In this document: piece by piece, positions 8,556 to 30,174 of the stretch
Position numbering within the stretch: the first letter of the stretch is position 1
Layout of the letters: the number at the start of each line of letters is the position of its first letter
From: Myxococcota bacterium
Lineage (GTDB): Bacteria > Myxococcota_A > Polyangia > Polyangiales > Houyiibacteriaceae
Assembly: GCA_039814655.1 (NCBI GenBank)
Contig: JBCCAW010000002.1
Location: 1 to 42,768, forward strand
Length of the DNA stretch: 42,768 nucleotides
Direction: 5' to 3'
Program-made: the position numbers and the translations under genes
Notes under the pieces: generated by a model
What the model was told of the DNA's origin: nothing
Databases searched by the model: none
The model's input: the letters and a program-made list of their open reading frames with translations, nothing else

Positions 8556-11500
8556 TCAGCGAAGGCGGCGGCGGCGGAAGACGACGAGGGCGAAGAGGCC
8601 GAGGCTCACGGCCATGGCGCCCGCCGGCGGGCTCTTCGAGCCGGCCACGTGGCAGCCGCAGCCGCCGCTCGATGCCATCTCGGGCATGTCGTCGCCACCG
8701 TCCGCCGGCGGCATCTCCATGTCGAGCGGGGCCATGCCCATGTCCTCGTCCATCGGGCCCATGTCGGCGGGCCCCATGTCCTCGTCCATCGGACCCATAT
8801 CGGCGGGGGGCGGCGGCGCCACGAGCACGTTCACCGTCGTATCCGCCGTGTCGCTGCCGACTCCGTCGCTCACCGTGAGCCGGTAGGCGAAGAGCGTCGC
8901 CTCCAGCACCTCCGGCGCCAGGAAGCTGGCCAGAGGCGCGTCGCTCGCGTCGAGGGCCGGTGCGTCCTCGAGCGGCGTCCAGGCGAAGGTCAGCACGTCC
9001 CCGTCGGGGTCCGAGCTGCCGCTGCCGTCGAGCACCGCCGTCTCGCCGCCGAAGACCTCCTGGGGCGGACCCGGGTCCGCCGTGGGCGCGCCCGCGCAGT
9101 CGCTCCCGTCGCCCACGTAGGCCGGGAAGCTCGGTCCGGTCACGCCGCTCACCGTCAGATCGTCGATCTCCCAGCCCGGCGCGCCGCGGGCCTGGTCCGT
9201 GCCCACGCGGAAGCGGAGCTGCACGGTCTCGCCGGCGAGCACGCTCCCGAAGTCGAGCACCACCGCGTCCGCTTCCGGCGCCGACGGGTTGGTGCCGCTG
9301 AAGGCGCGCCGGTCGGAGAGCGGGTTGTCCGCGCGGTCCGAGAGCTGCCCGTCGTAGCCCGGCTCGAGCACGCCGGGGATCTCGACGTCGTTCCAGGTCG
9401 CCCCGCCGTCGCGGCTCACCTCGATGACGCCGCCGTCCCAGTAGACGACCTCATCGTCGAAGTCCGCCTCGAACTCGTAGCGGTGCGTGAAGGAAAAGAC
9501 GAAGCTCTCGGTGGCCGAGACCTCCATGGGCGGCAGCACCACCGCCGTGTCCGTGATGCCCGGCGCGTCCAGGGCTCGGAGCACGCCGTTGGCCGGCTCG
9601 GCCTCGCTCGGCACCACGGCCCACACGCCCGTGGTCCGCCCGTCCAGGCTCGACTCCGCGAACCAGGGCGGCTCCACCTCGAAGTCCGCATCGTCGCGAA
9701 GGCCGAGGTCCGCGCTCACGGCGAGCTCGAGGGTCGTCTCGACGGTGTCGCAGAGCGAGTCGTTCAAAAGCGACGCCCGCACCTCGAGGGGCGCGCCCGG
9801 GTCCGCCGGGTCGCCCACGAGGCGCACGGGCAGCAGCAGCTCCCGCGCCTCGCCGCGGGCCATGGGCGAAAGGGCGACGTTGCCCTCGCCGGAGGGGTCG
9901 AAGAGCAGACGCAGCGCCGGGTCGGACACCTCGACGTGGAGCGTCGCCGCTTCGAGGGGCAGGATGCCGAAGTTTCGGAGCTGCACGCGGAGCTCGCCGT
10001 CTTCGCCCACGTCGAGCACATCGTCGGCGTCGCAGCGCGTCCCGGGCCCGTCCAGGGCGAACTCCAAGGACTCGATGCGCGCGCTCGGCGAGAGCTCGAA
10101 GTCCTCGACCACACCCGAATGGTCGTTCGAGAACCGCGCCGGGCTCACGGCGCAGGTGCCCGCGCCGCGGCCGGCGAAGGCCAGAGCGATGACCCGCGCG
10201 TCCTCGACGTCGTTTTCGAGGGCCGCCAGCACGATGCCGTCCCGCTGCTCGGTGTAGGTGGGGTTCTCCGGCGCGAGCTGCATGCCCGTCACCACGTAGG
10301 ACATCATGCGCCGCTTGGCCTCAGCGAAGTCGTAGGGCGCCGCGGGCTCGCGGGAGCGGTCCACGAGGGCCCAGGTCGCGTCGAACATCATGGACGCCCA
10401 GATCTCGCCGGAGTTGTGCACCTGCGCGTTGTTGGCCGAGCCGCCGCCGAGGGGATGCTCCGTGGGCAGCGCCTCGCCCTGGCTGATGTGCCGGAAGCTC
10501 AGCGCGTTGAAGGCCGGGTCGTCCGAGTAGGGCACGCGGCGCACGCCGAAGTAGACCGGCGTTCGGCCGCTCAGGGCAAAGCTGCCCGCCGGGTAGGGCT
10601 CCCCGCGCACATCGTCCTCGTTCAAAAACGAGAGCAGGGCCATGTAGTCGCCCCAGCCTTCGCCCATGCCGCCGCACTGGTTGTTGCCGCAGCGCACGAG
10701 GCGGTTGTGAATGTAGTGGCCCCACTCGTGGGCGATGATCTGGTTGTCGAGGGACCCGGAGAGGTTGTTCACCGCCGAGAGGCGCATCTGCACCTCGTCG
10801 CCCTCGGCGTCCGCGAGGCGGCCGCCGTTGCCCTGGCTGACCATGGTGGCCGGGATGGTGACGGACGGGTCCTCATCGCCGCCGAGCGTCGTCGGTCCGC
10901 CGCCGCGGTTGTTCATGATGATGACGCCGACGGCTCCCTGGGCCTGCGCGTTCCGCACCTTGACGATGAAGTTGCAGCCGCCGCGGTCGATGAGCGCGAT
11001 GGTGCCCGAGAGGTCGTTGGTGATCGGCTCGCAGCCGTCGCGCGTCGATCCCGTCCCGTCGTCGACGAGGCGCGAGGGCGCGGTCACGTCGTAGGTGCTC
11101 GGGCCGAAGTTCGAGGCGCTCGAGGTGAAGAAGGCGCCGTCGAGACGCACGAAGCGCGAGCCCGTGTCCCAGAGGAACATCTGCATGCGCGGCGAGTTCC
11201 CGTCCGCCGGCGTCGCCATGTTGGCGTTGTTGCGCCCGCCGGAGTCGAAGCCCTCGGCGTTGATGCGGTCGCCGTCTTCGCCGCCGCGGCCGAAGTTGTC
11301 CTGCTGGGCGTTGCCCGCCGCCTCGTCGAAGCCGACGTCGTAGAAGGCGTCGTGGAGCCAGTTGATCACGTAGAAGAGGTTCGTGATGCCGGCCTGGTAC
11401 TGCGTGTCGTTGGCCGTGGGGTCCGCCTCCGGATCCCAGACGTGCGCGAACACGCCGGGCTGCGTCACCTGGGCCCGAAGGTCGCCGGCGCTGAAGCCGC

Positions 11501-12593
11501 TCGGCGCCGTGCGGTCCGCGTAGGCGTCGACGTTGTTGCCCGTCGTCTCCGTCGCCCCGTCGGGCAGCCAGGGGTCGCCCATGCCCGCCGGATTCGTGTT
11601 GAGCCCCTCCACGAGGAAGGTGTCCTGCGTCGTGAACGCCGGCCGCGGGCTGTCCACCACCGGCGGGTCGAGGGGCGTGGTGTCGCCGTAGGCGCCGTCG
11701 AAGGGCTGACCGCCAAAGGGATGGCCGCCCGGCTGCGCGTAGACGAGGTAGCTGAAGGTCTCGTCCTGCGTGAGCGAGCGGCGGAGGAGCGGCGCGCCAT
11801 CCTCGGCGCTCACCACCGTGGCGACCAGCTCCGAGCTTCCCTGCCCGTCGGGGATCCACAGCTCGGCGTAGTAGGCCGGCACGAGACGACGGGGCAGCGG
11901 GTAGAGCACGGGCCGGCTTCGCACCGGGCCCTCGAGGGCGTAGCCGGCGTTGCGCCCGGCCGGCGCCAGGGCGAAGTCCCGGTAGCCGTCGCGACGCTGC
12001 ACGCCCGGGGCAACCGCGCCGGGCACCACCGCGCCGCCGAGGTGGTCGGCGAGCGCGTGCGCGATGGCCTGACGCTCGCTCAGCGCGAAGCCCGGCGCCG
12101 CCGTCGGCACCGCCGCATGGAGCGCGCCGCCCGCACCCACCAGCGCGCCGGCCGCATCGAGCAGCAAGGTCATGCGCGACCCGTGCACGGGCAGGCCCTG
12201 TGCGCGCTGCTCGAAGACCACCACGTGGCCGCCGGACGGCGTCCGCCGCGCCAGCTTCACGCGCGCCGTCTGCAGCGCGCGGGGGCCAAGCCCGTAGGTC
12301 GGCGCGAGCGCGCGCAGCAGCTCTGACGCGCGCCCTTCGGCGCTCCAGGGGCCCACGGCCGGCGGGAGCGCGCCGGGCGCGGCCACGAGCAGCGTCGGCG
12401 CACCGCGACGCAGGTCCCGAGAGAGCACCGAGAGGCCCGCCGGTGGCGCGAGCTGCTGTCCCTGCGTGGGGAGGGCCTGAGCGTAGGCATCGAAGGCCGG
12501 GGCCCGAAGCTGGGCGGCAGCCGGCGCGGGCGCCAGCGCGGCCGCGAGGCCCACGAGCATCGCGCTCGCGCGGGCGAGGGAGTTACAGCGCAT
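8556..12593 (-). CDS. Giant secreted zinc metalloprotease (M36 fungalysin-like HExxH) with PA domain, PKD-like repeat and MYXO-CTERM-like anchor
   Basis: Signal peptide MRCNSLARASAMLVGLAAALAPAPAAAQ from ATG 12593. HEWGH zinc motif at 10716-10730. PA-domain-like IALIDRGGCNFIVKVRNAQAQGAVGVIIMNN and PKD-like DPDGDVLTFAWTP. C-terminus SSGGCGCHVAG plus TM plus RRRRLR. Confidence 0.8.
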   Translation of the reverse strand: MRCNSLARASAMLVGLAAALAPAPAAAQLRAPAFDAYAQALPTQGQQLAPPAGLSVLSRDLRRGAPTLLVAAPGALPPAVGPWSAEGRASELLRALAPTYGLGPRALQTARVKLARRTPSGGHVVVFEQRAQGLPVHGSRMTLLLDAAGALVGAGGALHAAVPTAAPGFALSERQAIAHALADHLGGAVVPGAVAPGVQRRDGYRDFALAPAGRNAGYALEGPVRSRPVLYPLPRRLVPAYYAELWIPDGQGSSELVATVVSAEDGAPLLRRSLTQDETFSYLVYAQPGGHPFGGQPFDGAYGDTTPLDPPVVDSPRPAFTTQDTFLVEGLNTNPAGMGDPWLPDGATETTGNNVDAYADRTAPSGFSAGDLRAQVTQPGVFAHVWDPEADPTANDTQYQAGITNLFYVINWLHDAFYDVGFDEAAGNAQQDNFGRGGEDGDRINAEGFDSGGRNNANMATPADGNSPRMQMFLWDTGSRFVRLDGAFFTSSASNFGPSTYDVTAPSRLVDDGTGSTRDGCEPITNDLSGTIALIDRGGCNFIVKVRNAQAQGAVGVIIMNNRGGGPTTLGGDEDPSVTIPATMVSQGNGGRLADAEGDEVQMRLSAVNNLSGSLDNQIIAHEWGHYIHNRLVRCGNNQCGGMGEGWGDYMALLSFLNEDDVRGEPYPAGSFALSGRTPVYFGVRRVPYSDDPAFNALSFRHISQGEALPTEHPLGGGSANNAQVHNSGEIWASMMFDATWALVDRSREPAAPYDFAEAKRRMMSYVVTGMQLAPENPTYTEQRDGIVLAALENDVEDARVIALAFAGRGAGTCAVSPARFSNDHSGVVEDFELSPSARIESLEFALDGPGTRCDADDVLDVGEDGELRVQLRNFGILPLEAATLHVEVSDPALRLLFDPSGEGNVALSPMARGEARELLLPVRLVGDPADPGAPLEVRASLLNDSLCDTVETTLELAVSADLGLRDDADFEVEPPWFAESSLDGRTTGVWAVVPSEAEPANGVLRALDAPGITDTAVVLPPMEVSATESFVFSFTHRYEFEADFDDEVVYWDGGVIEVSRDGGATWNDVEIPGVLEPGYDGQLSDRADNPLSDRRAFSGTNPSAPEADAVVLDFGSVLAGETVQLRFRVGTDQARGAPGWEIDDLTVSGVTGPSFPAYVGDGSDCAGAPTADPGPPQEVFGGETAVLDGSGSSDPDGDVLTFAWTPLEDAPALDASDAPLASFLAPEVLEATLFAYRLTVSDGVGSDTADTTVNVLVAPPPPADMGPMDEDMGPADMGPMDEDMGMAPLDMEMPPADGGDDMPEMASSGGCGCHVAGSKSPPAGAMAVSLGLFALVVFRRRRLR
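8737..8808 (-). repeat. 2 x 36-bp in-frame tandem duplication encoding a DMGPMDEDMGPA acidic Met/Pro linker
   Basis: cccatgtcctcgtccatcgggcccatgtcggcgggc (8737-8772) is repeated with 3 mismatches at 8773-8808. It sits just upstream of the C-terminal sorting tail of the protease. Confidence 0.8.
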
Positions 12594-12601
12594 ATCCCGG
12601 T

Positions 12602-12607
12602 AGCTTA
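12602..12607 (-). promoter_or_regulatory. -10-like hexamer TAAGCT, 8 nt upstream of the protease ATG at 12593
   Basis: The minus strand reads CCCTAAGCT-ACCGGGAT-ATG. This fits TAnnnT with no SD, and the spacing is slightly longer than in the other candidates. Confidence 0.25.
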
Positions 12608-12734
12608 GGGCAACCGAAGCGCTCGGCGCGGCGAGCATCGTTGCGTTTTCCGTTACAGGCCGTGCGCGCGGGAGCTTTCCCGGGAAGATCCGGCTCATAA
12701 CGGCGTCCGCGCGGCGCCGCTCTTGTGAGTACCC

Positions 12735-14030
12735 TCAGGCGAGGACGCGGCGGAGCGCCGCTTTCGTCGCGTCGAAGGCCGCCGTTTCGTCGCGGCCCTG
12801 GCGCAAGAACCCCTCGATGGCGTCCAAACGCGCGAGCGCCGCGTCGAGGGCCGGGTCGCTACCGGCGGCGTAGGCACCGAGGGAAACCAGGTCGCGCTTG
12901 GCCTCGTAGGCCGCGAGGTGCGCCCGGAGCGTGGCGGCGTCTGCGAGATGCTCGGCGCTGACGACCTGGTCCATCACGCGCGAGAGGCTCGCCAGCACAT
13001 CCACGGCCGGCCAGCGCCCGCGCGCGCCGAGGGCCCGGTCGAGCACGACGTGCCCGTCGAGAATGCCGCGCACCTCGTCGGCCACGGGCTCCTCCATGTC
13101 GCCGCCTTCGAGGAGCACGGTGTAGAAGGCCGTGATCGACCCCTCCGGGCTCGTGCCGCTCCGCTCGAGGAGCGCCGGCAGCGCGGCGAACACGCTCGGC
13201 GGGTAGCCACGACGCGCCGGAGGCTCCCCGGCGGCCAAGCCCACCTCGCGGCCCGCGCGTGCAAAACGCGTGACGCTGTCCATGAGCAGCACGACGCGCT
13301 TGCCCTGGGCGCGGAAGTACTCGGCGACGCTCGTGGCGACCCAGGCGCTCTTCAAGCGCACCAAGGCCGGCGCGTCGCTCGTGGCGCAGACGACCACGCT
13401 CCGGCGCCGGCCCGCGTCGCCGAGGCTGTCCTCGAGAAACTCCCGCACCTCCCGGCCGCGTTCGCCGATCAGGCACACCACGAACACGTCGGCTTCGGCG
13501 AAGCGCGCGATCTGCCCGAGCAGCGTGCTCTTGCCGACGCCGGAGCCGGCGAAGAGGCCCACGCGCTGCCCCTCACCCACGGTCAGGAGCCCGTCGAGCA
13601 CGCGCACGCCGAGGCTCAGCGGCCGCGTGATCCGCGGGCGCGTGAGCGGCGCCGGGGGCGGGCGCATCACGGGCCACGGGTCCCCTTCGAGGGCCGGGCC
13701 GCCGTCCACGGGCCGGCCGAGGCCGTCGAGCACGCGGCCGAGGAGCGCAGGGGACGCGCGCACGCTTAGCGCCTCCGCCGCCGGGCGCACGGGATCGTCG
13801 GGCCCCAGGCCCTCCGCTTCGCCGAGGGGCAGGAGCAGCACCTCGTCGCCCTCGAAGCCGACCACCTCGGCGCGGAGCGGCGCCGGGCCCGGCCCGACCT
13901 CGACCACCTGGCCCACGCGTCCGCCGGGCAGCACGGCGCGGAGCGCGAGACCGACGAGGGAGGTCACCCGGCCCTGGACCCCGACGGTGCCGACGCCGGA
14001 GAGGCGCCGGCTGAGCGCGTCGGCGTCCAT
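12735..14030 (-). CDS. sctN: Type III secretion ATPase (SctN/YscN/FliI family)
   Basis: 431 aa from ATG 14030. Walker [12 protein letters not shown] and Walker [15 protein letters not shown]. Also [46 protein letters not shown] and [12 protein letters not shown], typical of the FliI/YscN family. The ATG overlaps the dnaJ stop (TGATG). Confidence 0.85.
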
Positions 14031-15136
14031 CAGTCGAAGAGCCGCTTGAGCTTGTCCAGAAAGCCCGCCTGCTGCGGCATGGAGTCCTCGCCGAGCTCCG
14101 CGGCGAGCTCTTCGATGAGCTTGCGCTGCTTCTTCGTCACCTTGGCCGGCACCTCGACCAGAATGGTGACGAGCTGGTCGCCCTTGCCCATGCCGCCGTA
14201 CACGGGGATGCCCTTGCCGCGCAGGCGGAAGACCTTGCCGGACTGGGTGCCCGGCGGGAGCTTCATCTGCACCTTGGCCTCGAGCGTCGGCACCTCGAGC
14301 GTCGCGCCGAGCACCGCCTGCGGGAAGGAGACGGGGACCGTGCAGAGCACGTCGGCCCCCTCCCGGCCAAAGAGCTCGTGGGGCGCGACGCGCACGGTCA
14401 CGTGCAGGTCGCCGGCGCCGGAGGCCGTCGCCTCGCCGGCGCCCCGGAGCGTGCGCACGGCACCATCCTCGACGCCGGCCGGGAGACGTACCTCGAGGCT
14501 CTCGCGCTGGGCGTTGATGCCCCGGCCCTCGCATTGGGCGCAGGGCAGGTGAATCTTGGTGCCCAAGCCGTTGCAGGCGGCGCAGCTCCGGTACCCTCCG
14601 AGGAAGCCGCGCTGCGAGCGCACCTCGCCGCGCCCTTTGCATACCGGGCACTCACTCACCTTGGTACCCGGCGCGGCGCCGCTCCCCTTGCAGGAGACGC
14701 AGGGCGCCGGGCGCTCGATCTCGACGTGTTTGGTGACGCCGAGCGCCGCCTCGACGAAGCTCACCTTGAGCTCGTAGGTCAGGTCCCGGCCGCTCCGGCG
14801 CCGGCGCCGGCCGCCGAAGACCTCGCCGAAGAGCCCATCGAGGATCTCGCCGAGGCCGCCAAGGTCCGCGGGGTCGAAGCCCGCAGACCCATCGCCACCA
14901 AAGGCCGCGTGCCCCAGACGGTCATAGCGGCGTCGCTGCTCCGAGTCGGAGAGCACGCGGTAGGCCTCGCTGGCCTCCTTGAAGGACTCCTCGGCGGCCG
15001 GGTCGCCGGGGTTTCGGTCCGGGTGGAGCTCCCTCGCCAGGCGCCGATAGGCCTTCTTCAGCTCGTCCGGCGGGGCGTCGCGGGGGACGCCGAGAACCTC
15101 GTAATAGTCGCGCTTTGCCACGGAGGCGTGGAGCAT
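14030..15136 (-). CDS. dnaJ: Molecular chaperone DnaJ (type I, with zinc-finger domain)
   Basis: J-domain [38 protein letters not shown] region and four CxxCxGxG repeats ([32 protein letters not shown]). ATG at 15136; the track ORF extends to 15274. Confidence 0.9.
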
Positions 15137-15341
15137 AGCGTCGCCGCGCGGTGGCGCCGCTGCCTTCGCGCCTGCCTGGAAATTTTTTCTCAGCTCCGCA
15201 CCGAGTTCCGCCGCAAGAGGCGCCCCGCCGCTCCAGGGCCGGGGCCCCCGCCGGCGTGAAGGAACCGAAATCATGAATGAAACACGCCACCGCGGCGGTC
15301 CTTGGCGGGGGGAACGGGCCTTGCACGGAGGTCACCTGCCC

Positions 15342-16109
15342 ATGCTGCGCCGTCTCCCACGCACCAAACTGCAGGCCGCTCCGCGCAGCGATTCGGCTGG
15401 TAACCGCGCCGTGGGTGACTGCGCCGTGGGTGACTGCGCCGTGGGTGACCGTGCCGTTCGCGGCGGCGTCCCGCCGCAAGTGCGCCGAAGCGCGCCCGGT
15501 CCCGCGCGCCGGGCGCGCCGGCAGGGTGGCTTTTCGCTCATCGAGCTGATGGTGGTGCTGCTCATCATCATCACCGCCGTCGGCCTCGCGGCGCCGACCA
15601 TCCGCGACGCGCTCGCGTCGAACCGGCAGCAGGAGCTGGCGCTGGCCATCGTGCGCATCGCCCGTGAGGCGCGCGCCCAGGCCGCATCGACGGGCCGGGC
15701 GCACCTGCTCGAGTTCAACGCGGCGGGCGCCGCGGGTCGGGGGCAGTTCTTTCTCTGGCGCGGCACGACCAACGTGTGCCGGAACAACGATTGGGCGGTG
15801 ATTCGCGCGCCCCTCGACTGCGCCGCGAACCCCAACTGCCGCGACATCGTCGACTCCGAGGACATCGAGGCCGGCAGCTCCATGCGCCTCCAGCTCGCAG
15901 CCTCCATCGCCGGCGGCGGCACCTTTTGCTACGAGCCCACGGGGGGGATGCTCTGGCCCATCGGCGGCCTGATCAACTTCACGGCGCTGAATCCCGGCGG
16001 CGGCGCCGTGACCATGCAGGTGCAGATGCAGGACACGGACGGGACGCCCGTGGGCGTGAACCGAAACGTGGTCTTCCCCATCGGCGGCGACGCGAGGATC
16101 CAGCGATGA
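15342..16109 (+). CDS. Minor (pseudo)pilin, FimT/GspH-like, with prepilin-type N-terminal methylation motif
   Basis: GGFSLIELMVVLLIIITAVGLA is a class III signal/cleavage motif. ATG 15342 has a GGAGG box 11 nt upstream but gives an unusually long leader. Alternative GTG 15480 gives a normal 17-aa leader (VRRSAPGPARRARRQGG/F). Confidence 0.7.
   Translation: MLRRLPRTKLQAAPRSDSAGNRAVGDCAVGDCAVGDRAVRGGVPPQVRRSAPGPARRARRQGGFSLIELMVVLLIIITAVGLAAPTIRDALASNRQQELALAIVRIAREARAQAASTGRAHLLEFNAAGAAGRGQFFLWRGTTNVCRNNDWAVIRAPLDCAANPNCRDIVDSEDIEAGSSMRLQLAASIAGGGTFCYEPTGGMLWPIGGLINFTALNPGGGAVTMQVQMQDTDGTPVGVNRNVVFPIGGDARIQR
15406..15457 (+). repeat. 3.5 x 15-bp tandem repeat (gcgccgtgggtgact)
   Basis: Units at 15406-15420, 15421-15435 and 15436-15450, plus a partial unit. 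It encodes AVGDC-AVGDC-AVGDR if the pilin gene starts at 15342, and is 5'-UTR if it starts at 15480. Confidence 0.85.
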
Positions 16110-16759
16110 GGCGCCGGCTTCGGAGCGCATCCGCACGGCGCGGCGGGTTCACCATCATCGAGGTAATGATGGCCATCACGGTGCTCGCCATCGGCGCCGT
16201 CGGTCTCATGGGCCTCGTGCAGGCCACGGTGCGCGGCAACCAGCAGGGGCGACGCATCACGACGGCCACGCAGGTCGCGCGCACCTGGCTCGAGCGCGTG
16301 CGTACGGACACCATCGGCTGGACCACCAACACGCCCGGGGGCACGGCGACGACCTGCTACCTGCAGAACGCGCCGGCCGTGGCCGTGGGTGCCTCGTCGG
16401 GCTGGTTCGTGCCCCAGCCCGGTGGCGCCAACTGCGTCGACGTGGGCGGGCTCCCGGCGGCCTCCGAGGTGGGCATCGCCGCCGGCGCGGCCTGGACCGG
16501 CGCGGACGCGGTGAACTCCTCCGGCATCGGCAACCAGGCCCGCTACTGCACGCTGCTTCGCGTCACCTGGGTCGTCGCCGGCGAGATGCTTCGCGCCGAC
16601 GTGCGCACCTGGTGGGACGACAGCAGCGAGGCGCAGCTCGCGCCGAACTGCGGCCTCGGCAACGAGGCGGACATCGTGGCCGAGCTCGACGGCCCCATCG
16701 AAGACACGACGCTGCGCTCCGTGGAGACCTCCACGCTCGTGCGCTGGAGGCAGCAATGA
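16106..16759 (+). CDS. pilV: Minor pilin, PilV-like
   Basis: MRRRLRSASARRGGFTIIEVMMAITVLAIGAVGL prepilin motif. The ATG overlaps the upstream stop (ATGA). Confidence 0.7.
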   Translation: MRRRLRSASARRGGFTIIEVMMAITVLAIGAVGLMGLVQATVRGNQQGRRITTATQVARTWLERVRTDTIGWTTNTPGGTATTCYLQNAPAVAVGASSGWFVPQPGGANCVDVGGLPAASEVGIAAGAAWTGADAVNSSGIGNQARYCTLLRVTWVVAGEMLRADVRTWWDDSSEAQLAPNCGLGNEADIVAELDGPIEDTTLRSVETSTLVRWRQQ

Positions 16760-17970
16760 ACGCGCATCGCACGCGGCCGGCGCGCCGAGGAGGCGGCCGG
16801 CGCGAGGCTGGCTTCACGCTGCTCGAGCTCATGACGGCGCTCGTGGCCGGGCTCGTGGCGGTCACGGCGACCTATCTCATCAGCGCCGAGACCTCGCGCC
16901 ACTTCAACGAGCAGGCCCGCGTCGCGCAAACGCAGACCAGCGTGCGCATGGCCATGGAGCAGCTCCGCCGGGACATTGCTCGCGCGGGCTTCTTCGGTAC
17001 GCCGAACACGCAGACCGAGCAGCGCTGCGTGAACGCGGCCTTCAACTACGGCGCCCTCGCCTACCAGGACGGCGCAGGCACGGCCGCGCTTCCCCTCGCG
17101 GGCGTCAACAACGTCGAAGCCGACCAGCTCACGCTCGTCGGCAACTACGCGACGAGCGACGGCTACCTCGCGCGCCCCGCCGGCGCCGCGAACAACGCGG
17201 TCATCGTCCAGGAAGGCTGGCAGGCCTTCCGGCGGAGCTTCGGGGCCCCGGAGATCCCCGCCGGCGGCGCCGGGTTCACGGCCAACGCCTACGACCCGAA
17301 CTTCTTCCAGGCGGTCTTCAGCCAGGACAACCAGCTCCATATCGAGACCACCGCGGGCAACCACTTCTTCGTGGCCATCCAGGGCAGCACCGGGGTGAAC
17401 CGGCAGGTGGCCTTCGCGCCGGGGACGCCGCCCAACCCGGACTGCGGCGACCTCACGGGGTCCACGGTCGCGCCGCTCTCGCGCATTCGCTACCGCGTGC
17501 TGGACCCGGCGGCGGACGCGCGCTTCGCCGCCCTCGTGAACCCGACGGATGCGGCCCGCGGCATCACCAACTCGGTGCTCATCCGCGAGCAGATTCAGTT
17601 CAACGGCGCGGACACGGTGGTCCCGGGCACCGAGCGCGTCATTCTCGAGTACGTCGCCAACTTCTCGCTCACCTTCGTCGTCGACAACCGGGCGCCGCCC
17701 TTCGCTGGGCCGCCCAACCTGGTGCTCCTCGACGACACGCAGGGCGCCCAGGCCTTCCTCGCCGCCAACCCGGAGCGCGTGCGCTCGGTCATCGTGGATC
17801 TCAGCGCGCGCACGCCGGACGCGGACCCGGGCTTCCGGCCCCTCGCGGGCAACCGTGACCCGGCCGCCAACGGGCCACTCACGCGCTACCGGGTCATTCC
17901 CAACCTCGACGCCGCCGCCCGCGTCCGCAGCATCCGGAGCGAAATCTTTCTCCCGAACGTCGCTCCCTGA
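16756..17970 (+). CDS. pilW: Minor pilin, PilW-like
   Basis: EAGFTLLELMTALVAGLVAVTATYLI prepilin motif; 404 aa. ATGA overlap with the pilV-like stop. Confidence 0.7.
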   Translation: MNAHRTRPARRGGGRREAGFTLLELMTALVAGLVAVTATYLISAETSRHFNEQARVAQTQTSVRMAMEQLRRDIARAGFFGTPNTQTEQRCVNAAFNYGALAYQDGAGTAALPLAGVNNVEADQLTLVGNYATSDGYLARPAGAANNAVIVQEGWQAFRRSFGAPEIPAGGAGFTANAYDPNFFQAVFSQDNQLHIETTAGNHFFVAIQGSTGVNRQVAFAPGTPPNPDCGDLTGSTVAPLSRIRYRVLDPAADARFAALVNPTDAARGITNSVLIREQIQFNGADTVVPGTERVILEYVANFSLTFVVDNRAPPFAGPPNLVLLDDTQGAQAFLAANPERVRSVIVDLSARTPDADPGFRPLAGNRDPAANGPLTRYRVIPNLDAAARVRSIRSEIFLPNVAP

Positions 17971-17987
17971 TCCCCGGCTTTTTCGTC

Positions 17988-18668
17988 ATGCGTACTTCCC
18001 CGACCCATCGCTCCATTCGCTCTCGTCGCCAGCAGCGCGTTGCCCGCCAACAGGGCGCCGCCATGCTCGTCGTGATGCTCGTGCTCCTCATGGGCACGGC
18101 CACGGGAATCTACGCGGCGCACCAGACCACCTTCGAGATTCGCGCGGCCGGGCATCTCCGCCAGGCCATGCAGACCGAATACGTGGGGCTCACCGGGGCG
18201 GCGGCGGCGCTGGGGTGGACGGACCAGTTCCGGGCGAGCGGACTCAACCAAGCCATGGAGCGGACGACGCAGCTGCAGGGGGGCGCGCCGGCGCTCGACC
18301 TCGCGCCCTTCGAGCCGCCCATGCTGCCGGGCAAGCGGGCCTACCGGCTCTACGCCGGTGACTTCGCGCTGGCCTTCCAGGGCACCATCACGGACCCGGA
18401 CGCATCGGCGGCGGCGCTCGGCGCGCACACGCCCTACGTGCCCACGCACACCGTGGACGTCTACGACGACTACCGGACCACGCGGCCCGTGCCCGGCGCA
18501 CCGGCCGACGGCCGGGCAGAGCTCGTCTACCTGAACGCCACCTACACGGCGCGCGGGCGCTCCGGCGTGCCGGGGCTCGCGGCCAACGTCGGCCCCGACG
18601 GCCGGCCCTTCTTCGAGGTGTCGAGCGATTCCCGCGCCTACGGGCGCTCCGGACCCATGGGCCTCTGA
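17988..18668 (+). CDS. pilX: PilX-like minor pilin / pilus assembly protein
   Basis: RQQGAAMLVVMLVLLMGTATGIYA is a PilX_N-type hydrophobic N-terminus lacking the G-F-T-x-x-E motif. It sits between the pilW-like and pilY1-like genes. Confidence 0.6.
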   Translation: MRTSPTHRSIRSRRQQRVARQQGAAMLVVMLVLLMGTATGIYAAHQTTFEIRAAGHLRQAMQTEYVGLTGAAAALGWTDQFRASGLNQAMERTTQLQGGAPALDLAPFEPPMLPGKRAYRLYAGDFALAFQGTITDPDASAAALGAHTPYVPTHTVDVYDDYRTTRPVPGAPADGRAELVYLNATYTARGRSGVPGLAANVGPDGRPFFEVSSDSRAYGRSGPMGL

Positions 18669-18679
18669 GGCGGATTGTC

Positions 18680-21600
18680 ATGAACGGACTCACCCAACAC
18701 ACGACCCGCCTGCTCGCAGCCCTCGGCCTCGCGCTCGCTTCGGCCAGCGTGGCGCCGACGCCGGCGGCGGCGCAGAACGACATCCGGGACATCCCGCCGC
18801 TGGTCACGCTCCTCGTCGACACGTCGAGCTCCATGCAGCGCCTCGGCGCCTGCGAGTGCGACACGTCGACGGATCCGGCGTGCCGGGGCTGCCTCCCGGA
18901 GTGCACCACGGGCACGCCGGAGCGGAACCGCTGGTGGACCGTCGTCGAGGCGCTGACGGGCACCTTCGCCGACTTCAGCTGCTCCGTCGAAGACCGGGAC
19001 GCGCCTTCCTACGCTGGCGAGCCCGACTACACGGACCCGATCCCGCACGTGCGCGCCGGCGGCATCGCGTGCCTGTCGAACTCGGACTGCCCCGGCGCGC
19101 TCACCTGCCTGAGCGACGGCGCAACGCAGGGTCTCTGCCAGGAAGAGGACGGCATTCTGGACATCTACCGCGAGCGCGTTCGCTTCGGGTTCATGACCTT
19201 CGACACCGGGGACACCTTCCTCAGCGGTCCGGGCATCAACATCGAGAACGAGCTCGTGACGCGCGCCCTTTACCAGTCGCGCATCGGCGAAGAGTCCACG
19301 GCCATGGGCACCTACTCCTACGGCGAGGCTCGGCCCTTCAGCTTCCCGGGCTGCGGTGAGCCCTACATGATCAACAACGGCGTCCGGACCTACCGGGCCG
19401 ACGGCGGCTCGCTCATCTCGAGCGGTCGCGAGGGCGTCGACGACCTCGTGACCATCAACCAGCTCATCCAGGAGTCGCTCCTGGACCCCTCGCTGCGCCC
19501 CACGGGGGCGACGCCAGTCGCGGGCATGCTCGAGGACCTCGACTTCTACTTCGACAACGACCCGGACGTGAGCCCCATTCGCGCCGGGACGCTCGGCTCC
19601 GGTGACCCCTTCAACGCCTGCCGCGCGCGCTACGCCATCCTGCTCACGGACGGAGCGCCGAACGCGGACATGCGCGACTCCACGGTCAACTGCGAAGCCA
19701 TGGGCAACGGCGTGGGCGAGCTCGGCTGCCCCTACGACACGCCGGTGAACACGGCGGCGCGCCTCGTCACCGAGGGCGACATCCAGGCGCTCTATGTCGT
19801 GGGCTTCAACGTGACGGCGGACAACTGCCCTTCCGGCGTGGCCGGGGACCGCTGCCGGCAGAACGCCGCGGACGCCATCGCCGAGCTCGATGCCATCGCC
19901 GACGCGGGCAACACGGGCTCGGCGATCTTCGCGGACGACCGGGCGACGCTGATCGCGGCGCTGGCAACCATCATCGACGAGTCGGCCCCGGGCACGACCT
20001 CGCGCACGCAGCCCGCCTTCGCGAACACTGGCTCCTCGACGGGCGCGGTGAACAGGCAGATTCAGCTCAACACGGGCTTCAACGTGTCCCGGGAGGCCGG
20101 CGAGCCCTGGACCGGCGTGCTCGAGCGGCGCCGCTTCGAGTGCGACGGGCTCACCGTGGAAGAGCAGCCCGTGCTTCCCACGGACCGCTTCCAGAACGTG
20201 TTGAACGCACAGACCGGCGCGCCGGGATCGGGCTCCGAACCGCGCCGCCTGCTGACCGTCGTGGCGCCCACGCTGCCGCCCTTCCTCGACTTCTACGGCG
20301 ACGGGCAGGCCGATCTCCAGGCGCGCTCCCCGACGCCGCCGCTCCCGCCGACGGGGCTGCCGACCAACGCGCTTCAGGTCGGGCTCGATCTGCAGGCCTT
20401 CGGGCTGAGCAACCCGGCGCTGACGCCGGAGGTGCTGGGCCTGGACGACCCGCTGCTCTCCGGGGCCGAGCAGCTGCTGGCGCTGCAGAACACCTTCGAG
20501 TGGATGCAGGGCCTCGCGGGGACCGCGCGTGACGGGCGACGGCTCGGCTCCATCGTGCATTCGTCGCCGGTGGTCGTCGGGCCCCCGAGCCTCGACATCG
20601 CCGACGAGGACTACAACCTCTTCCGCGAGCGCGTGGGCGAGCGGCCCACGGTGACCTATGTGGGCACCAACGACGGGCTAATGCACGCCTTCCTCACGGA
20701 GGACTACGAGGTGCCGGCCACGGACCCGGACTTCGCGGGCCTGAACATCACCGCGGGAACGGAGCTCTGGGGCTTCGTGCCGCCGGTGCTGCTGCGTCAG
20801 CTCCCGGACGTGCAGGACGCGCCGCGGGCCATGGTGGACGCCACGCCGGTCGTCCGCGACGTCTTCGACGCGCGGCTCCTCGGGCAGATCGCCTCCGGCG
20901 ACGCCTACCGCACGGTCATGGTCTCGGGCCTCCGGGCCGGCGCCCCGGCCTTCTTCGCCCTCGACGTCACGGACCCCTTCCGGCCCGAGTTCCTCTGGCA
21001 GTACACGGACCCGGGCATGCTCGGGGAGACCTACGGGGAGCCCACGCTGGCGCAGGTGCGCGTCGAGTTCGGGAGCGTGACCCACGAGCGCGGCATCGCG
21101 ATTCTCCCGGGCGGAAAGGGCACCCAGGACCTGACGCTCGGCGGCGTCGACCTGGACGGCGACGGCACGCCGGAGACCTCCCCGGCGTGCTCCGTTCCGG
21201 CGAACGCCGTGGGCCTCACGCCGGAGCGCGGGGAGGCCGGGCGCACCGACCGCCGCTGCTGGATGCCCGACGAGGGCCGGGCGCTGGTCATCCTGGACCT
21301 GGCCACCGGCGCCGTCCTCCGCTCCTGGGATGCCGCGACCTTCCCGGCGCCCCTCGCCGGCGGCGTCTCCGCCTTCCCCGGCGACACGGGCAACATCGCC
21401 ACGCGCGCCTTCGTGACCGACGAGGACGGCGTCATCTGGCGCATCGACCTGTCCGAACCGGACCCGGACGACTGGGAGGTCTCGGCCTTCTACGACATGT
21501 TCCATGGCCTGGGCTACGCGGCGGGTCAGCCGGCCTTCGGCCCGCCGGTGCTCAGCACCGACGAGGACGGCAACGTGGTCATCCTTCACGGCACCGGTGA

Positions 21601-22240
21601 CATCGACCGCCTCGAGAACCCGGGCGTTCGGAACCGCATCGTGTCCTTGACGGAGCAGATCACCTTCGACGACGCGACGGGGGCGGTGACGGATGTGGGC
21701 GCGCGCCTCAACTGGGAGATCACCCTGGACGAGGGCGAGCTCGTGACCGGGCCCCTGGAGCTCTTCAACGGGGAGGTCTTCTTCGGCACCTTCACGAGCA
21801 CCACGGACATCACCAACGCCTGCGAGTTCGGCTTCAGCCGCATCTGGGGCGTGCAGTATATCGAGAGCGAGCCGGCCGTGAGCACGGACCCGGCGCCGGC
21901 CCTCGAGTCCACGCCGGGGTCGGGCATCCAGGACGTGACGAACCTCGGCCCCGGCGACTCGCCGGGCCTCGACAACCGGCTCGTGCTCGGTGTGTCGGTC
22001 ACCGAGCGGCCCAACTGCGCGCTCCGCGACGAGGTCAGCGAAACGGACCCCTACATCGGCACACGACAGACCGTGCGTATGCGGCAGGTCGCGCCGCCGA
22101 CCTTCGAGCTCGTGGCTCAGCTCTCCGGCGGTCCCGGCGGGGGCGGTGCCGGCGGGGGCTCGGTGCAGGAGTTCAACCGTGAGCTGCCGCCGCCGGTCGG
22201 GTACACGACGCAACGCGCGCTCCTCGGCATCGTCGACTGA
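18680..22240 (+). CDS. pilY1: PilY1-like type IV pilus tip adhesin with N-terminal vWA domain
   Basis: 1186 aa. Signal peptide ..ASASVAPTPAAAQ. MIDAS DxSxS motif (LLVDTSSSM, D-T-S-S-S at 18818-18832). C-terminal beta-propeller-like region with a Ca-binding-like loop DLDGDGTPE (21149-21175). Position after the pilVWX-like genes supports the call. Confidence 0.8.
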   Translation: MNGLTQHTTRLLAALGLALASASVAPTPAAAQNDIRDIPPLVTLLVDTSSSMQRLGACECDTSTDPACRGCLPECTTGTPERNRWWTVVEALTGTFADFSCSVEDRDAPSYAGEPDYTDPIPHVRAGGIACLSNSDCPGALTCLSDGATQGLCQEEDGILDIYRERVRFGFMTFDTGDTFLSGPGINIENELVTRALYQSRIGEESTAMGTYSYGEARPFSFPGCGEPYMINNGVRTYRADGGSLISSGREGVDDLVTINQLIQESLLDPSLRPTGATPVAGMLEDLDFYFDNDPDVSPIRAGTLGSGDPFNACRARYAILLTDGAPNADMRDSTVNCEAMGNGVGELGCPYDTPVNTAARLVTEGDIQALYVVGFNVTADNCPSGVAGDRCRQNAADAIAELDAIADAGNTGSAIFADDRATLIAALATIIDESAPGTTSRTQPAFANTGSSTGAVNRQIQLNTGFNVSREAGEPWTGVLERRRFECDGLTVEEQPVLPTDRFQNVLNAQTGAPGSGSEPRRLLTVVAPTLPPFLDFYGDGQADLQARSPTPPLPPTGLPTNALQVGLDLQAFGLSNPALTPEVLGLDDPLLSGAEQLLALQNTFEWMQGLAGTARDGRRLGSIVHSSPVVVGPPSLDIADEDYNLFRERVGERPTVTYVGTNDGLMHAFLTEDYEVPATDPDFAGLNITAGTELWGFVPPVLLRQLPDVQDAPRAMVDATPVVRDVFDARLLGQIASGDAYRTVMVSGLRAGAPAFFALDVTDPFRPEFLWQYTDPGMLGETYGEPTLAQVRVEFGSVTHERGIAILPGGKGTQDLTLGGVDLDGDGTPETSPACSVPANAVGLTPERGEAGRTDRRCWMPDEGRALVILDLATGAVLRSWDAATFPAPLAGGVSAFPGDTGNIATRAFVTDEDGVIWRIDLSEPDPDDWEVSAFYDMFHGLGYAAGQPAFGPPVLSTDEDGNVVILHGTGDIDRLENPGVRNRIVSLTEQITFDDATGAVTDVGARLNWEITLDEGELVTGPLELFNGEVFFGTFTSTTDITNACEFGFSRIWGVQYIESEPAVSTDPAPALESTPGSGIQDVTNLGPGDSPGLDNRLVLGVSVTERPNCALRDEVSETDPYIGTRQTVRMRQVAPPTFELVAQLSGGPGGGGAGGGSVQEFNRELPPPVGYTTQRALLGIVD

Positions 22241-26514: not shown

Positions 26515-27543
26515 TTAGCTCGAGCGGACGGCCAAGCGGTCGGCCACGGCCTTCAGCAGGGTCACACCCTCCGCCGAAAAGGGCGCGCCCTCGAGGGCGC
26601 CGTGGGCCGCGGCGAGGAGCGTCTTCAGCCGCGCCTCGACGTTGGCCTTGGCGCCGCTCGAGACGAGGAGCGCCGAGGCGGCTTCGAGGGCCGGCTCGGA
26701 GCGATCCTGTCCGCCGATGACCTGGTCGAGGGCGTCGCGCTGGCCCGCCGGGAGCAGGCGCTCGGCCTCGGCGACGAGACAGGTGCGCTTGCCGTTGCGG
26801 AGGTCGTTGCCGGGCTTTCCCGTGGCGCCCTGGTCGCCGAAGGTGCCGAGCAGATCGTCGGCGAGCTGAAAGGCCTCGCCGAGGGGGTTTCCGTAGGCGA
26901 GGAACGCCGCCATGGCCTCGGCGCTCGCGTCGCCGAGCAGACCGCCGAGGCGCAGGGGCCCGCGCACCGTGTAGGAGCCGGTCTTCAGGTCGTGCATGCG
27001 CGAGACGTCGGGGTTGGCCGTGAGATCGAGGTGATGGCCGAGGATGACTTCCTTCTGGATGCGGAGGAACGCCTCCATGGCCTCGCCGCGCCGGGCGGCG
27101 GGGAAGGGCGCCTCGACGAAGAGCTCGAAGGCGTAGGCGCTGCCGATGTCGCCGGCGAGAATGGCGAGGCTGTCGGCGAGGTGGCCTTCGTGGCGGTCGC
27201 GGAAGGCCGCGTGCACCGCGGGGCCGCCGCGGCGCTCGTCGTCCTGGTCCATCCAGTCGTCGTGGATCAGTAGGTAGCTCTGGAGCAGCTCGAGGGCTGC
27301 GCCGGCGCTCACGGTGTCGCTCAGCGGGCGCTCCGGGGCGACGCACGCCGTGGCCGCCGCGAGCACGACGGGGCGGAAGCGCTTGCCGCCGCGAAGCGTG
27401 AGGTCGCGAATTCCCTCGACGAGCTCGACGCTCTCCGGGGAGATGGCCGTGGCTTCGGCCACCTTGAGCTCGAAGTAGGCGGCAAGCTTCGCGTCCACGA
27501 GGTCGCGAACGCGGGGGAGAAAGTCGGCGAGGGTCTCGGACAT
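26515..27543 (-). CDS. Polyprenyl diphosphate synthase (GGPP/FPP synthase family)
   Basis: First Asp-rich motif LLIHDDWMDQDDERRG, second Asp-rich motif FQLADDLLG, and GKRFRP near the N-terminus. Confidence 0.85.
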   Translation of the reverse strand: MSETLADFLPRVRDLVDAKLAAYFELKVAEATAISPESVELVEGIRDLTLRGGKRFRPVVLAAATACVAPERPLSDTVSAGAALELLQSYLLIHDDWMDQDDERRGGPAVHAAFRDRHEGHLADSLAILAGDIGSAYAFELFVEAPFPAARRGEAMEAFLRIQKEVILGHHLDLTANPDVSRMHDLKTGSYTVRGPLRLGGLLGDASAEAMAAFLAYGNPLGEAFQLADDLLGTFGDQGATGKPGNDLRNGKRTCLVAEAERLLPAGQRDALDQVIGGQDRSEPALEAASALLVSSGAKANVEARLKTLLAAAHGALEGAPFSAEGVTLLKAVADRLAVRSS

Positions 27544-27791
27544 GGGGCGCTCCGGGGCGGCGCGAGGGCAGGCCTGGGGCCGGGCAGGCGAGCTGCGGCG
27601 CGCGAGGCGCGGGCGTAGCCTTCGACGTGCCCGTGGGCAAGGGCGCTTCGGCCCCTGCGGCTCGCGACCGCGGGAGCGCAGCTCGGCCCGCGCTCGTCAC
27701 GGTCCGGCGGGGCGCCGCTTGCGTCACACCGCCGGCTGGTGGACGTCATCGTGCGGCCCCACGGTCCCCTCCCATGAGCCGCGGAGACACC

Positions 27792-28862
27792 ATGAGCAGC
27801 GAAGCGTCCAACGTCCTCGACATCGGCCAGCGCAAGGCCGACCACCTCGACCTCTGCGCCACCGACGCCGTGGCCTTCAAGAAGGTGACGACGCTCCTCG
27901 AGGAGGTGCGGCTGGTGCATCAGTCGCTTCCGGACCTCGACGTCGATAGCGTGGACCTGTCGACGACGCTGCTCGGCAAGACGCTCCGGGCGCCCATCGT
28001 CATCGCGGCCATGACCGGCGGCCACGAGCGGGCGGCGGAGGTGAACCACACGCTTGCCTCCATCGCGAACGACCGGGGCTACGGCTTCGGCCTCGGGTCC
28101 CAGCGAGCCATGCAGAAGCGTCCCGACACGGCCTGGACCTTCCAGGTGCGGGAGAAGGCGCCGGACGTGCTGCTGATGGGCAACGTGGGCGTGGTGCAGG
28201 CGCGGGACATGGACGTGGAGATCATCGCGACGATGATCGAGCAGGTCGGGGCCGACGCGCTCTGCGTGCACCTGAACCCGGCCATGGAGCTCGTGCAGCC
28301 CGGCGGCGACCGGGACTTCACGCGGGGCACGGAGACCATCGCGCGCCTCGTGAAGGCGCTGCCCGTGCCCGTGGTGGGCAAGGAGACGGGCAACGGCATC
28401 AGCGTGGAGACGGCGCGGAAGCTCCGCGACGCGGGCGTCAGCACCGTGGACACGAGCGGCGCCGGCGGCACGAGCTGGGTGGGTGTGGAGACGCTCCGGG
28501 CCGAGGGCGATCAGAAGACGCTGGGCGAGATGCTCTGGGATTGGGGCGTGCCGACGGCGGCGAGCGTGCACAACGTGGTGCGCTGCGGCATGCACGCCAT
28601 CGCGACCGGCGGCATGAAGAACGGCTACGACGTGGCTCGGGCCATCGCGCTCGGCGCGAGCGCCGGGGGATTCGCGCGGCAGGTGTTCCAGGCCTTCGTG
28701 AGTGGCGGCCGCGACGGCGCCGAGGCCTTCTTGAACCGGGTGGAGAACGAACTCCGGGCGGTGATGCTCCTGAGCGGAGCGCAGACCGTGGACGAGCTCC
28801 GCCGCGCCCCGCGCATGATCGGCCCCCAGCTCCGCGAATGGATGACCCTCACCGACCGCTGA
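27792..28862 (+). CDS. fni: Type 2 isopentenyl-diphosphate delta-isomerase (FMN-dependent)
   Basis: QRKADHLDLC, AAMTGG, VGKETGNGIS and DTSGAGGTSW match IDI-2 signatures. ATG 27792 has GGAG 5 nt upstream; an alternative ATG is at 27774. Confidence 0.85.
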   Translation: MSSEASNVLDIGQRKADHLDLCATDAVAFKKVTTLLEEVRLVHQSLPDLDVDSVDLSTTLLGKTLRAPIVIAAMTGGHERAAEVNHTLASIANDRGYGFGLGSQRAMQKRPDTAWTFQVREKAPDVLLMGNVGVVQARDMDVEIIATMIEQVGADALCVHLNPAMELVQPGGDRDFTRGTETIARLVKALPVPVVGKETGNGISVETARKLRDAGVSTVDTSGAGGTSWVGVETLRAEGDQKTLGEMLWDWGVPTAASVHNVVRCGMHAIATGGMKNGYDVARAIALGASAGGFARQVFQAFVSGGRDGAEAFLNRVENELRAVMLLSGAQTVDELRRAPRMIGPQLREWMTLTDR

Positions 28863-29001: not shown

Positions 29002-29271
29002 ATGAACGGGGCGGAGCTCGGGAGGCTGGCGGCGGAAGCCCTGTACCTGGTGCTGCTCGTCTCGGCCCCGGCTCTGCTCGTGAGCCTCGCCGTCGGCCTG
29101 AGCGTCGGACTTCTCCAGGCCGTGACCCAGGTGCAGGAGCAGACGCTGAGCTTCGTGCCGAAGCTCGCAGGCGTCGCCATCGCGCTCGTCGTGGGCGGCG
29201 GCTGGATGGGCGCGCAGCTGATTCGCTTCACGTCGCGGCTCTGGGAGAGCCTGCCGCTGCTCTTCCCATGA
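29002..29271 (+). CDS. sctS: Type III secretion export-gate protein SctS (FliQ/YscS family)
   Basis: 89 aa. LLVSAPALLVSLAVGLSVGLLQAVTQVQEQTLSFVPKLAGVAIAL is an almost textbook FliQ/YscS core (QA.TQ.QEQTL.FVPK). Confidence 0.9.
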   Translation: MNGAELGRLAAEALYLVLLVSAPALLVSLAVGLSVGLLQAVTQVQEQTLSFVPKLAGVAIALVVGGGWMGAQLIRFTSRLWESLPLLFP

Positions 29272-29370: not shown

Positions 29371-29388
29371 TTGCTTGAGGCGGTGTTG

Positions 29389-30174
29389 ATGGTGCTGGGG
29401 CTCGAGGATGGGCGGGTCCTTTCCCTCGGGGCGCTCACGGCGGCACGCGTGGCGCCGCTCACCGTCGTCGCGCCCTGGCTCATGGTGCGCGACGCGCCGG
29501 CCCTGGTGCGGAGCGGCGTCATTTTGGCGCTCACCGTCGCCTTCGCGCCCTTGGCCTTCGCCTCGGCGCCGGCGACGCTCCAGGTGCCCTTCGTCGTCGC
29601 GCTGGTTCGCGAAGGCCTCATCGGCACCTGCTTTGCCTTCGCGACGGCGCTGCCCTTCTACGCCTTCGATTTCGCCGGCCGCCTCGTCGACACCTGGCGC
29701 GGCGCCGGCCTCGCCGAGGTCATCGCGCCCCCGACGGGCGAACGCACGAGCCCCCTCGGCGACCTCCAGCTCCTCGCCGCCGTCGCGCTCTTCGCCACGC
29801 TCGGAGGCCACCGCCTCGCGCTCCTGGCCTTCGCCGAAGGCCTGACCATCGCGCCCGTCGGCGCCACGCCCCTCGCCGGAGGGACCGCGAGCGTGGCCCT
29901 CGGCGCCGCCGCGCTCTCGGGAGCCGCGCTGGCGTTCGCCGCCGCCGTTGCCGCGCCCGCCGCCGCCGCCATCGTGCTCGTGGAAGCGAGCCTCGGCCTC
30001 GTCGCCCGGGCCACTCCGCAGATTCCCGTCTTCTTCGCCGGCATGCCGCTCCGCGCCGCCGCGGGTCTCCTGGGCGCGCTACTCGCCGCCGCCGCCCTCG
30101 GCGACACGCTCGCGCCAGCCCTCGCCGAAGGGCTGCGCACGGCGACCGATTGGTTGCGGGCCTTTGCTCGCTGA
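29389..30174 (+). CDS. sctT: Type III secretion export-gate protein SctT (FliR/YscT family)
   Basis: 261 aa from ATG 29389 (the track ORF starts at 29326 inside the repeat). Polytopic membrane protein. LVREGLIGTCFAF..FDFAGRLVD and LVEASLGLVARATPQIPVFFAGMPLRAAAGLL match FliR/YscT blocks (..R..PQ.n.F..g.P.k). Position after sctS supports the call. Confidence 0.8.
   Translation: MVLGLEDGRVLSLGALTAARVAPLTVVAPWLMVRDAPALVRSGVILALTVAFAPLAFASAPATLQVPFVVALVREGLIGTCFAFATALPFYAFDFAGRLVDTWRGAGLAEVIAPPTGERTSPLGDLQLLAAVALFATLGGHRLALLAFAEGLTIAPVGATPLAGGTASVALGAAALSGAALAFAAAVAAPAAAAIVLVEASLGLVARATPQIPVFFAGMPLRAAAGLLGALLAAAALGDTLAPALAEGLRTATDWLRAFAR

Follow-up and report, generated by a model that had tools for sequence, protein, structure and literature searches.

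Why should the gene for a T3SS (type III secretion system) ATPase, sctN, start within the stop codon of dnaJ, a general chaperone gene? The question is raised by a 42,768-nt stretch of DNA (hereafter the window; contig JBCCAW010000002.1, C771 in our numbering) from a Polyangiales metagenome-assembled genome (MAG) of 6.1 Mb in 868 contigs, with 72% GC, 93% completeness, and 2% contamination. An earlier note, made from the sequence of the window, had described the ATPase as an orphan that is either paired with DnaJ for dedicated substrate delivery or recruited to a role outside secretion. Comparison with 61 genomes of the same order, about 48 of which contain an orthologue of the ATPase, led us to a different reading, which we hold with moderate confidence: sctN would encode an ATPase that belongs to a needle-less, Myxo-type T3SS with dispersed genes, standing in a dnaJ-led housekeeping block and probably cotranscribed with it, and its link to dnaJ would reflect inherited gene order rather than a dedicated chaperone-unfoldase module. 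The analysis established the gene identities, the dispersal of the system, the conservation of the adjacency, and the joint loss of SctN and SctV; that the dnaJ-sctN link is historical is probable.

Identity and phylogeny of the ATPase

The sctN gene (12735..14030, minus strand) encodes a 431-aa non-flagellar T3SS (NF-T3SS) ATPase of the myxobacterial type. The protein exceeded the cut-off of the FliI/YscN family model TIGR01026 (548.2 against 379.5) and contained the domains PF00006 (E=3e-83), PF18269 (E=1.9e-23), and PF02874 (E=2e-4), so that the N-terminal barrel, the alpha/beta nucleotide-binding domain, and the C-terminal domain of T3SS ATPases are all represented. Its best model was that of SctN, TIGR02546, with a score of 574.3 that nevertheless falls under the equivalog cut-off of 604.75; the FliI clade 2 model gave 548.5, under its cut-off of 629.8. 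All catalytic motifs were intact, including the Walker motifs that the earlier note had described as undamaged: Walker A (AGSGVGKS, residues 161-168), GERGRE at residue 189 with the catalytic glutamate, Walker B (VLLMDS, residue 247), and the SLSRV arginine finger (residue 348). These motifs aligned with those of the solved T3SS ATPases 9e58, EscN (6njo), and FliI (2dpy). The ATG start is supported by the orthologues, whose alignments begin with the first residue of the ATPase; across the order they are 56-92% identical with every catalytic motif retained. In named records they occur in Polyangiales, Polyangiaceae, and Sandaracinaceae MAGs, and more distant copies are found in Bradymonadales and Archangium.

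A phylogeny of the ATPase against the FliI, SctN, and F1 clades, as advised in the earlier note, was built by maximum likelihood from 106 sequences (quick search) and rooted with the genome's own F1 subunit, which sits on a long branch. The window ATPase fell within a Myxococcota clade (SH-aLRT 98) that includes the Archangium sequence and is sister to the chlamydial and classical injectisome SctN proteins (SH-aLRT 97). The FliI sequences, the genome's own flagellar FliI included, lay outside the NF clade. This position agrees with that of the basal NF-T3SS group named 'Myxo' by Abby & Rocha (PMC3459982). The same family and the same Myxococcota clade contain the SctN of the needle-less T3SS*/T3SS(2) of M. 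xanthus (PMC3459982, PMC12075869), where the ATPase of the 'Myxo' group marks the needle-less T3SS* at prey contacts and the T3SS* functions in predation (PMC12075869). The myxobacterial needle-less systems, which are basal in the injectisome tree, have so far been known from compact loci in Cystobacterineae (PMC3459982); in Myxococcus they contribute to the lysis of prey, and one comparative study reported T3SS mainly in the order Myxococcales (PMC10196010). The sctN product would be the hexameric ATPase of a needle-less 'Myxo'-type NF-T3SS. Flagellar FliI (with FliH and FliJ), encoded in this genome by its own fliH-fliI-fliJ genes on contig C39, has the same fold and catalytic motifs, whereas the window ATPase groups with the NF-T3SS proteins and the upstream slot usual for fliH or sctL is taken by dnaJ.

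Dispersed secretion genes in the same genome

The ATPase proved not to be an orphan: the genome carries dispersed NF-T3SS core genes, two of them in the window itself. The export-gate subunit genes sctS (29002..29271, plus strand; PF01313, E=1.4e-28; TIGR01403, 89.6 against a cut-off of 76.5) and sctT (29386..30174, plus strand; PF01311, E=3.4e-39) form a pair between fni-like and hpt genes, 15 kb from sctN. They are surrounded (26515-28862 and 37222-38106) by genes for a polyprenyl synthetase, a type 2 IDI-like FMN enzyme, and a GHMP (mevalonate-type) kinase and by dnaN and recF, and these neighbours place the gate genes in core housekeeping territory.

Other contigs contributed sctV (FHIPEP; C76:21682-23805; 768 with the SctV model, cut-off 692, and 654 with the FlhA model), an FlhB/SctU-like sctU (C357:7965-9065; SctU model 333 versus FlhB 297), a FliP/SctR-like sctR (C366:10180-10848; SctR model 232, cut-off 209), and the gene of an SctJ-like lipoprotein (C707:8121-8888; SctJ model 151). 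The likely SctQ of the dispersed T3SS is a protein of 365 aa whose C-terminal part is a SpoA (FliMN_C) domain; it is encoded on the minus strand at C643:7984-9081 beside the tmk and heme A/O synthase genes. Each of these genes stands isolated amid unrelated housekeeping genes on a separate contig. The NCBIfam non-flagellar models were preferred for this second export-apparatus set of the genome, in which an NF-type export gate (SctRSTUV) and SctJ co-occur with the window ATPase. The stator and stalk proteins SctL and SctO diverge fast. Searches of the 93% complete MAG for an SctL/FliH-family stator of the window ATPase returned only the flagellar FliH with PF02108 and nothing with TIGR02499, and neither needle nor secretin genes turned up in the neighbourhood of the window sctN.

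Across the relatives, SctN and the NF-type SctV were retained or lost together. Both are absent from G004, G020, G028, G034, and G039 (99-100% complete) and from G021 and G023, and nearly all other genomes of the 61-genome set carry both.

The T3SS genes of Polyangiales would lie dispersed, singly or paired, amid housekeeping genes. In Myxococcia the genes of the T3SS*/T3SS(2) occupy one or two compact loci, whereas in the present genome all core genes are dispersed, the ATPase gene stands in a dnaJ-led housekeeping block, and SctL was not detected. Polyangiales keep a complete but fully dispersed T3SS core, and a system of such a kind would escape cluster-based detectors. The chlamydial T3SS (CdsN) likewise has its core genes scattered among housekeeping genes and is constitutive (PMC3459982); its ATPase is ~53% identical to the window ATPase, and the chlamydial clade lies within the sister group in our tree. 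Unlike the present genome, Chlamydiae have multi-gene sub-clusters with secretin, needle, and SctL, and the chlamydial loci compared did not show sctN beside dnaJ. By analogy with Chlamydiae, the arrangement suggests constitutive expression.

Conservation of the dnaJ-sctN adjacency

The adjacency, which the earlier note had advised to trace across relatives, is not unique to this strain. Arrangements were tallied by hand over the 48 ATPase-bearing genomes from search coordinates combined with tblastn on the loci. In 29 of them, from 15 of about 20 families, dnaJ lies directly upstream of sctN on the same strand with a gap of <200 nt. The two genes are on the same strand and 0.8-2.7 kb apart in 2/48 genomes, adjacent and convergent in 6/48, and on different loci or contigs in the remaining 11/48. 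The spacer ranges from -4 (a GTGA overlap) to +159 nt. The adjacency is thus ancient and widespread, in contrast to strict translational coupling.

When genes were called and clustered in 16-kb regions of 20 genomes, with mapping by tblastn, a recurrent block emerged with the order uvrB - F4 - F5 - pcm / rluD(<) - dnaJ(>) - sctN(>), continuing after sctN with (membrane protein F17) - lycopene-cyclase-like F2 - Rieske F13 - desaturase-like F9(<) - methyltransferase F10(<). Neighbour frequencies counted over 29 loci with 1.5-kb flanks placed F2 (with or without F17) after sctN in 17/29 loci and dnaJ before sctN in 16/29, so sctN is linked to dnaJ no more firmly than to an unrelated gene downstream. 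In the window genus both flanks of the block have been replaced, by a pilin operon upstream and an M36 protease gene downstream, and dnaJ and sctN alone stayed together. We propose that in the ancestor of the order sctN was placed directly 3' of a general type I dnaJ, and that both genes would have been part of a compact block of co-directional genes: rluD | dnaJ - sctN - (membrane protein) - lycopene-cyclase-like - Rieske.

The F2, F13, F9, and F10 products were considered as hidden T3SS parts and rejected by sequence inspection, no profile search having been run; by this inspection they resemble lycopene-cyclase-like, Rieske, desaturase-like, and methyltransferase proteins, respectively.

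The dnaJ-sctN junction

At the junction the minus strand reads ...CTCTTCGAC-TGATG-GACGCC, a 1-nt overlap (TGATG, 14028..14032) in which the dnaJ stop TGA (14032-14030) and the sctN start ATG (14030-14028) have the A in common. The earlier note had reported this common nucleotide correctly, and the dnaJ-sctN bicistron that it proposed is plausible, the overlap being real and the genes lying on the same strand. Same strand, stop/start overlap, and no terminator-like site between the genes are together the sequence marks of a coupled bicistron. A scan of the coding strand found neither a promoter-like nor a terminator-like site between dnaJ and sctN, either of which, in the earlier note, would have separated the two genes. 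The same scan, which has little power in a myxobacterium of 72% GC, returned no sigma-70-like site in 12400-15700, and no CIRCE/HrcA operator was found upstream of dnaJ in the window with up to 3 mismatches allowed. The final 20 nt of dnaJ contain no Shine-Dalgarno-like GGAGG, which fits coupling by termination and reinitiation.

Taken at the level of sequence, these features indicate that sctN is probably cotranscribed with dnaJ and, in this genome, probably also translationally coupled to it. The exact 1-nt TGATG overlap was found only in this genome among the relatives compared; in the nearest relative, whose SctN is 92% identical, 46 nt separate the two genes and include a separate GGGAGGGG ribosome-binding site. 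In the window genus the flanks of the ancestral block would have been rearranged and the spacer reduced to the TGATG overlap. The sctN transcript would most likely start at the dnaJ promoter, with translation by termination-reinitiation coupling, and sctN would thereby have housekeeping-type expression, as in the scattered chlamydial T3SS.

DnaJ and its paralogue

The dnaJ gene (14030..15121, minus strand) belongs to clade A of the two dnaJ clades described below and encodes a canonical type I DnaJ of 363 aa with the Pfam domains DnaJ, DnaJ_CXXCXGXG, and DnaJ_C. Its start is most likely the GTG at 15121, which gives a predicted MAKRDYY... terminus like that of the orthologues; the ATG at 15136 chosen in the earlier note is in frame and adds 5 residues. 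The protein is complete, with a J domain carrying HPD, a zinc-finger centre with four CXXCXGXG repeats, and a C-terminal domain (PF00226, PF00684, PF01556), and it scored 417 with PRK10767 (cut-off 338). GC3 is 0.92-0.94 in both the dnaJ and the sctN frames, indicating that both are real genes.

Counting of the dnaJ paralogues, also advised in the earlier note, revealed two ancient canonical paralogues. In almost all relatives the full-length type I dnaJ genes number two, one from clade A (the window type; 54-88% identity among orthologues, in nearly all 61 relatives) and one from clade B (42-47% identical; the genome's own copy at C651:18485-19564). Both exceeded the DnaJ equivalog cut-off of TIGR02349 (377.2), with 380.7 for the window protein of clade A and 388.8 for clade B; both look canonical, and a T3SS-specific domain is present in neither. 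In the trees Bradymonadia carry one of each, so the two clades predate Polyangiales. Neither dnaJ of this genome adjoins dnaK or grpE, and the earlier note was right that the window copy stands apart from them. The clade A dnaJ has been kept in four complete genus-g3 genomes (99-100%) that lost SctN and SctV, and this persistence argues for a T3SS-independent role. DnaJ-A would be an ordinary DnaK co-chaperone, and any aid that it gives to T3SS assembly or substrates would be generic, not dedicated.

Alternative explanations

The foremost rival, which we regard as unlikely, is a functional module in which SctN has a true partner in a type I DnaJ, acting with DnaK, and selection holds sctN beside dnaJ. 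DnaJ could hold or deliver unfolded substrates or assist the assembly of the hexamer or the sorting platform, and it might take over from dedicated T3S chaperones that are missing or from the SctL stator, which was not detected. Some of the observations that speak for such a module also weigh against inherited gene order. In the deep sister lineage of the ATPase tree it is the clade B dnaJ, not the clade A gene, that flanks sctN, co-directionally in L065, L076, and L160 (G052:C4) and convergently in L066, L082, and L096. A synteny comparison found none of the A-block neighbours at the DnaJ-B-linked sctN loci (deep lineages share little synteny anyway), and with no neighbours in common the DnaJ-A and DnaJ-B loci are different contexts; sctN stands beside a type I dnaJ in two deep lineages, with different paralogues and in different surroundings. 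Synteny inertia explains the dnaJ-B link only if the ancestor held dnaJ-A, dnaJ-B, and sctN together. The failure to find SctL with PF02108 and TIGR02499 leaves room for an unconventional partner, and absences from a MAG that is 93% complete and split into 868 contigs are provisional.

Two further points favour the module. The window lost both ancestral flanks, yet the pair remained and tightened to an overlap. In E. coli the interactions of cytoplasmic flagellar parts with HtpG need DnaJ/CbpA, and DnaK contacts motor components (PMC3708813). The action of DnaK/DnaJ/CbpA and HtpG on cytoplasmic export and switch proteins of the flagellum sets a precedent for the work of general chaperones on T3SS-type cytoplasmic parts, but the E. 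coli link is physiological and not a gene pair.

Against the module, and against the dedicated substrate-delivery pairing of the earlier note, which found no support, stands the retention of DnaJ-A in the 99-100% complete genomes that lost SctN and SctV. The sctN-cyclase adjacency is conserved equally. The two genes are convergent (6 genomes) or apart (11) in 17/48 genomes, with sctN intact there, and both DnaJ proteins are canonical, with no T3SS-specific domain. Moreover, dnaJ-A and dnaJ-B stand in tandem on the same strand, with sctN elsewhere, in L166 (G051:C45:20746-23019) and in G067 (C2:90029-92394), which permits a single ancestral three-gene cluster, and in G047 (C213) dnaJ-B lies 4.9 kb from dnaJ-A-sctN. 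The simplest history would be an ancestral dnaJ-A/dnaJ-B/sctN neighbourhood that was resolved differently by lineage; the alternative history is repeated juxtaposition of sctN and dnaJ under selection.

We consider it quite unlikely that the needle-less T3SS ATPase of Polyangiales works with a canonical type I DnaJ, mostly A and in the deep sister lineage B, as its partner, and that this DnaJ could replace the secretion chaperones or the undetected SctL, with selection keeping the pair together despite the dispersal of the system. Two different dnaJ paralogues beside sctN and the lack of a detected SctL nevertheless provide a testable hypothesis on how a minimal system recruits or unfolds its substrates.

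It is also rather improbable, in our view, that dnaJ and sctN are neighbours only, with sctN expressed mainly from a promoter of its own within the 3' part of dnaJ and the overlap an accident of spacer loss that entails no coupling. Spacers of up to 131-159 nt in relatives (L022, L033) are promoter-sized, the nearest relative has a separate ribosome-binding site, and the convergent arrangements show that sctN is able to use its own promoter. In the window, however, there is no spacer, no sigma-70-like site was found in 12400-15700 (the scan being weak at 72% GC), and no recognizable Shine-Dalgarno sequence precedes the sctN ATG.

Recruitment of the ATPase to a process outside secretion, the second suggestion of the earlier note, was not borne out and is very improbable: no T3SS genes adjoin sctN and SctL is not detectable, but the other core genes are all present and equally dispersed, the ATPase sequence is conserved across the order with its catalytic motifs, and the joint retention and loss of SctN and NF-type SctV makes a non-secretion role unlikely.

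Neighbouring and flagellar genes

Directly after sctN, as the earlier note had it, lies the gene for a secreted-type metalloprotease, an M36 fungalysin-type enzyme with PA and PKD domains (8556..12698, or 8556-12554, minus strand; 1332-1380 aa). As a conserved partner of sctN it was rejected, as it stands downstream of sctN in the same genus only (also in G002) and is absent at all other loci. Upstream of dnaJ and divergent from it is an operon of minor-pilin (N_methyl) and PilY1-like genes (15342-22240, plus strand). The needle-less T3SS* of M. xanthus works with a pilus tipped by minor pilins (PMC12075869); the position of the pilin operon beside dnaJ-sctN is genus-specific and probably coincidental.

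Contig C39 encodes another FliI/SctN paralogue, which shares 54% identity with the window ATPase, in the row flgB-flgC-fliE-fliF-fliG-fliH-fliI-fliJ (C39:23569-30276). Further flagellar genes are flhB-flhA-flhF on C572, fliP-fliQ-fliR on C332, and two FliM/N genes on C151, so that this Polyangiales MAG holds a full flagellar set (flgBC, fliEFGHIJ, fliPQR, flhBAF, and fliMN). Myxobacteria are commonly considered non-flagellated. Flagellar-type FliI and FlhA were also found in many relatives, including the single-contig 9.07-Mb genome G013. At the flagellar loci of the present genome, the FliH protein (C39:27576-28538) and the product of C332:3-932 contain long Thr-Asp/Thr-Glu dipeptide tracts (TDTETETE...).

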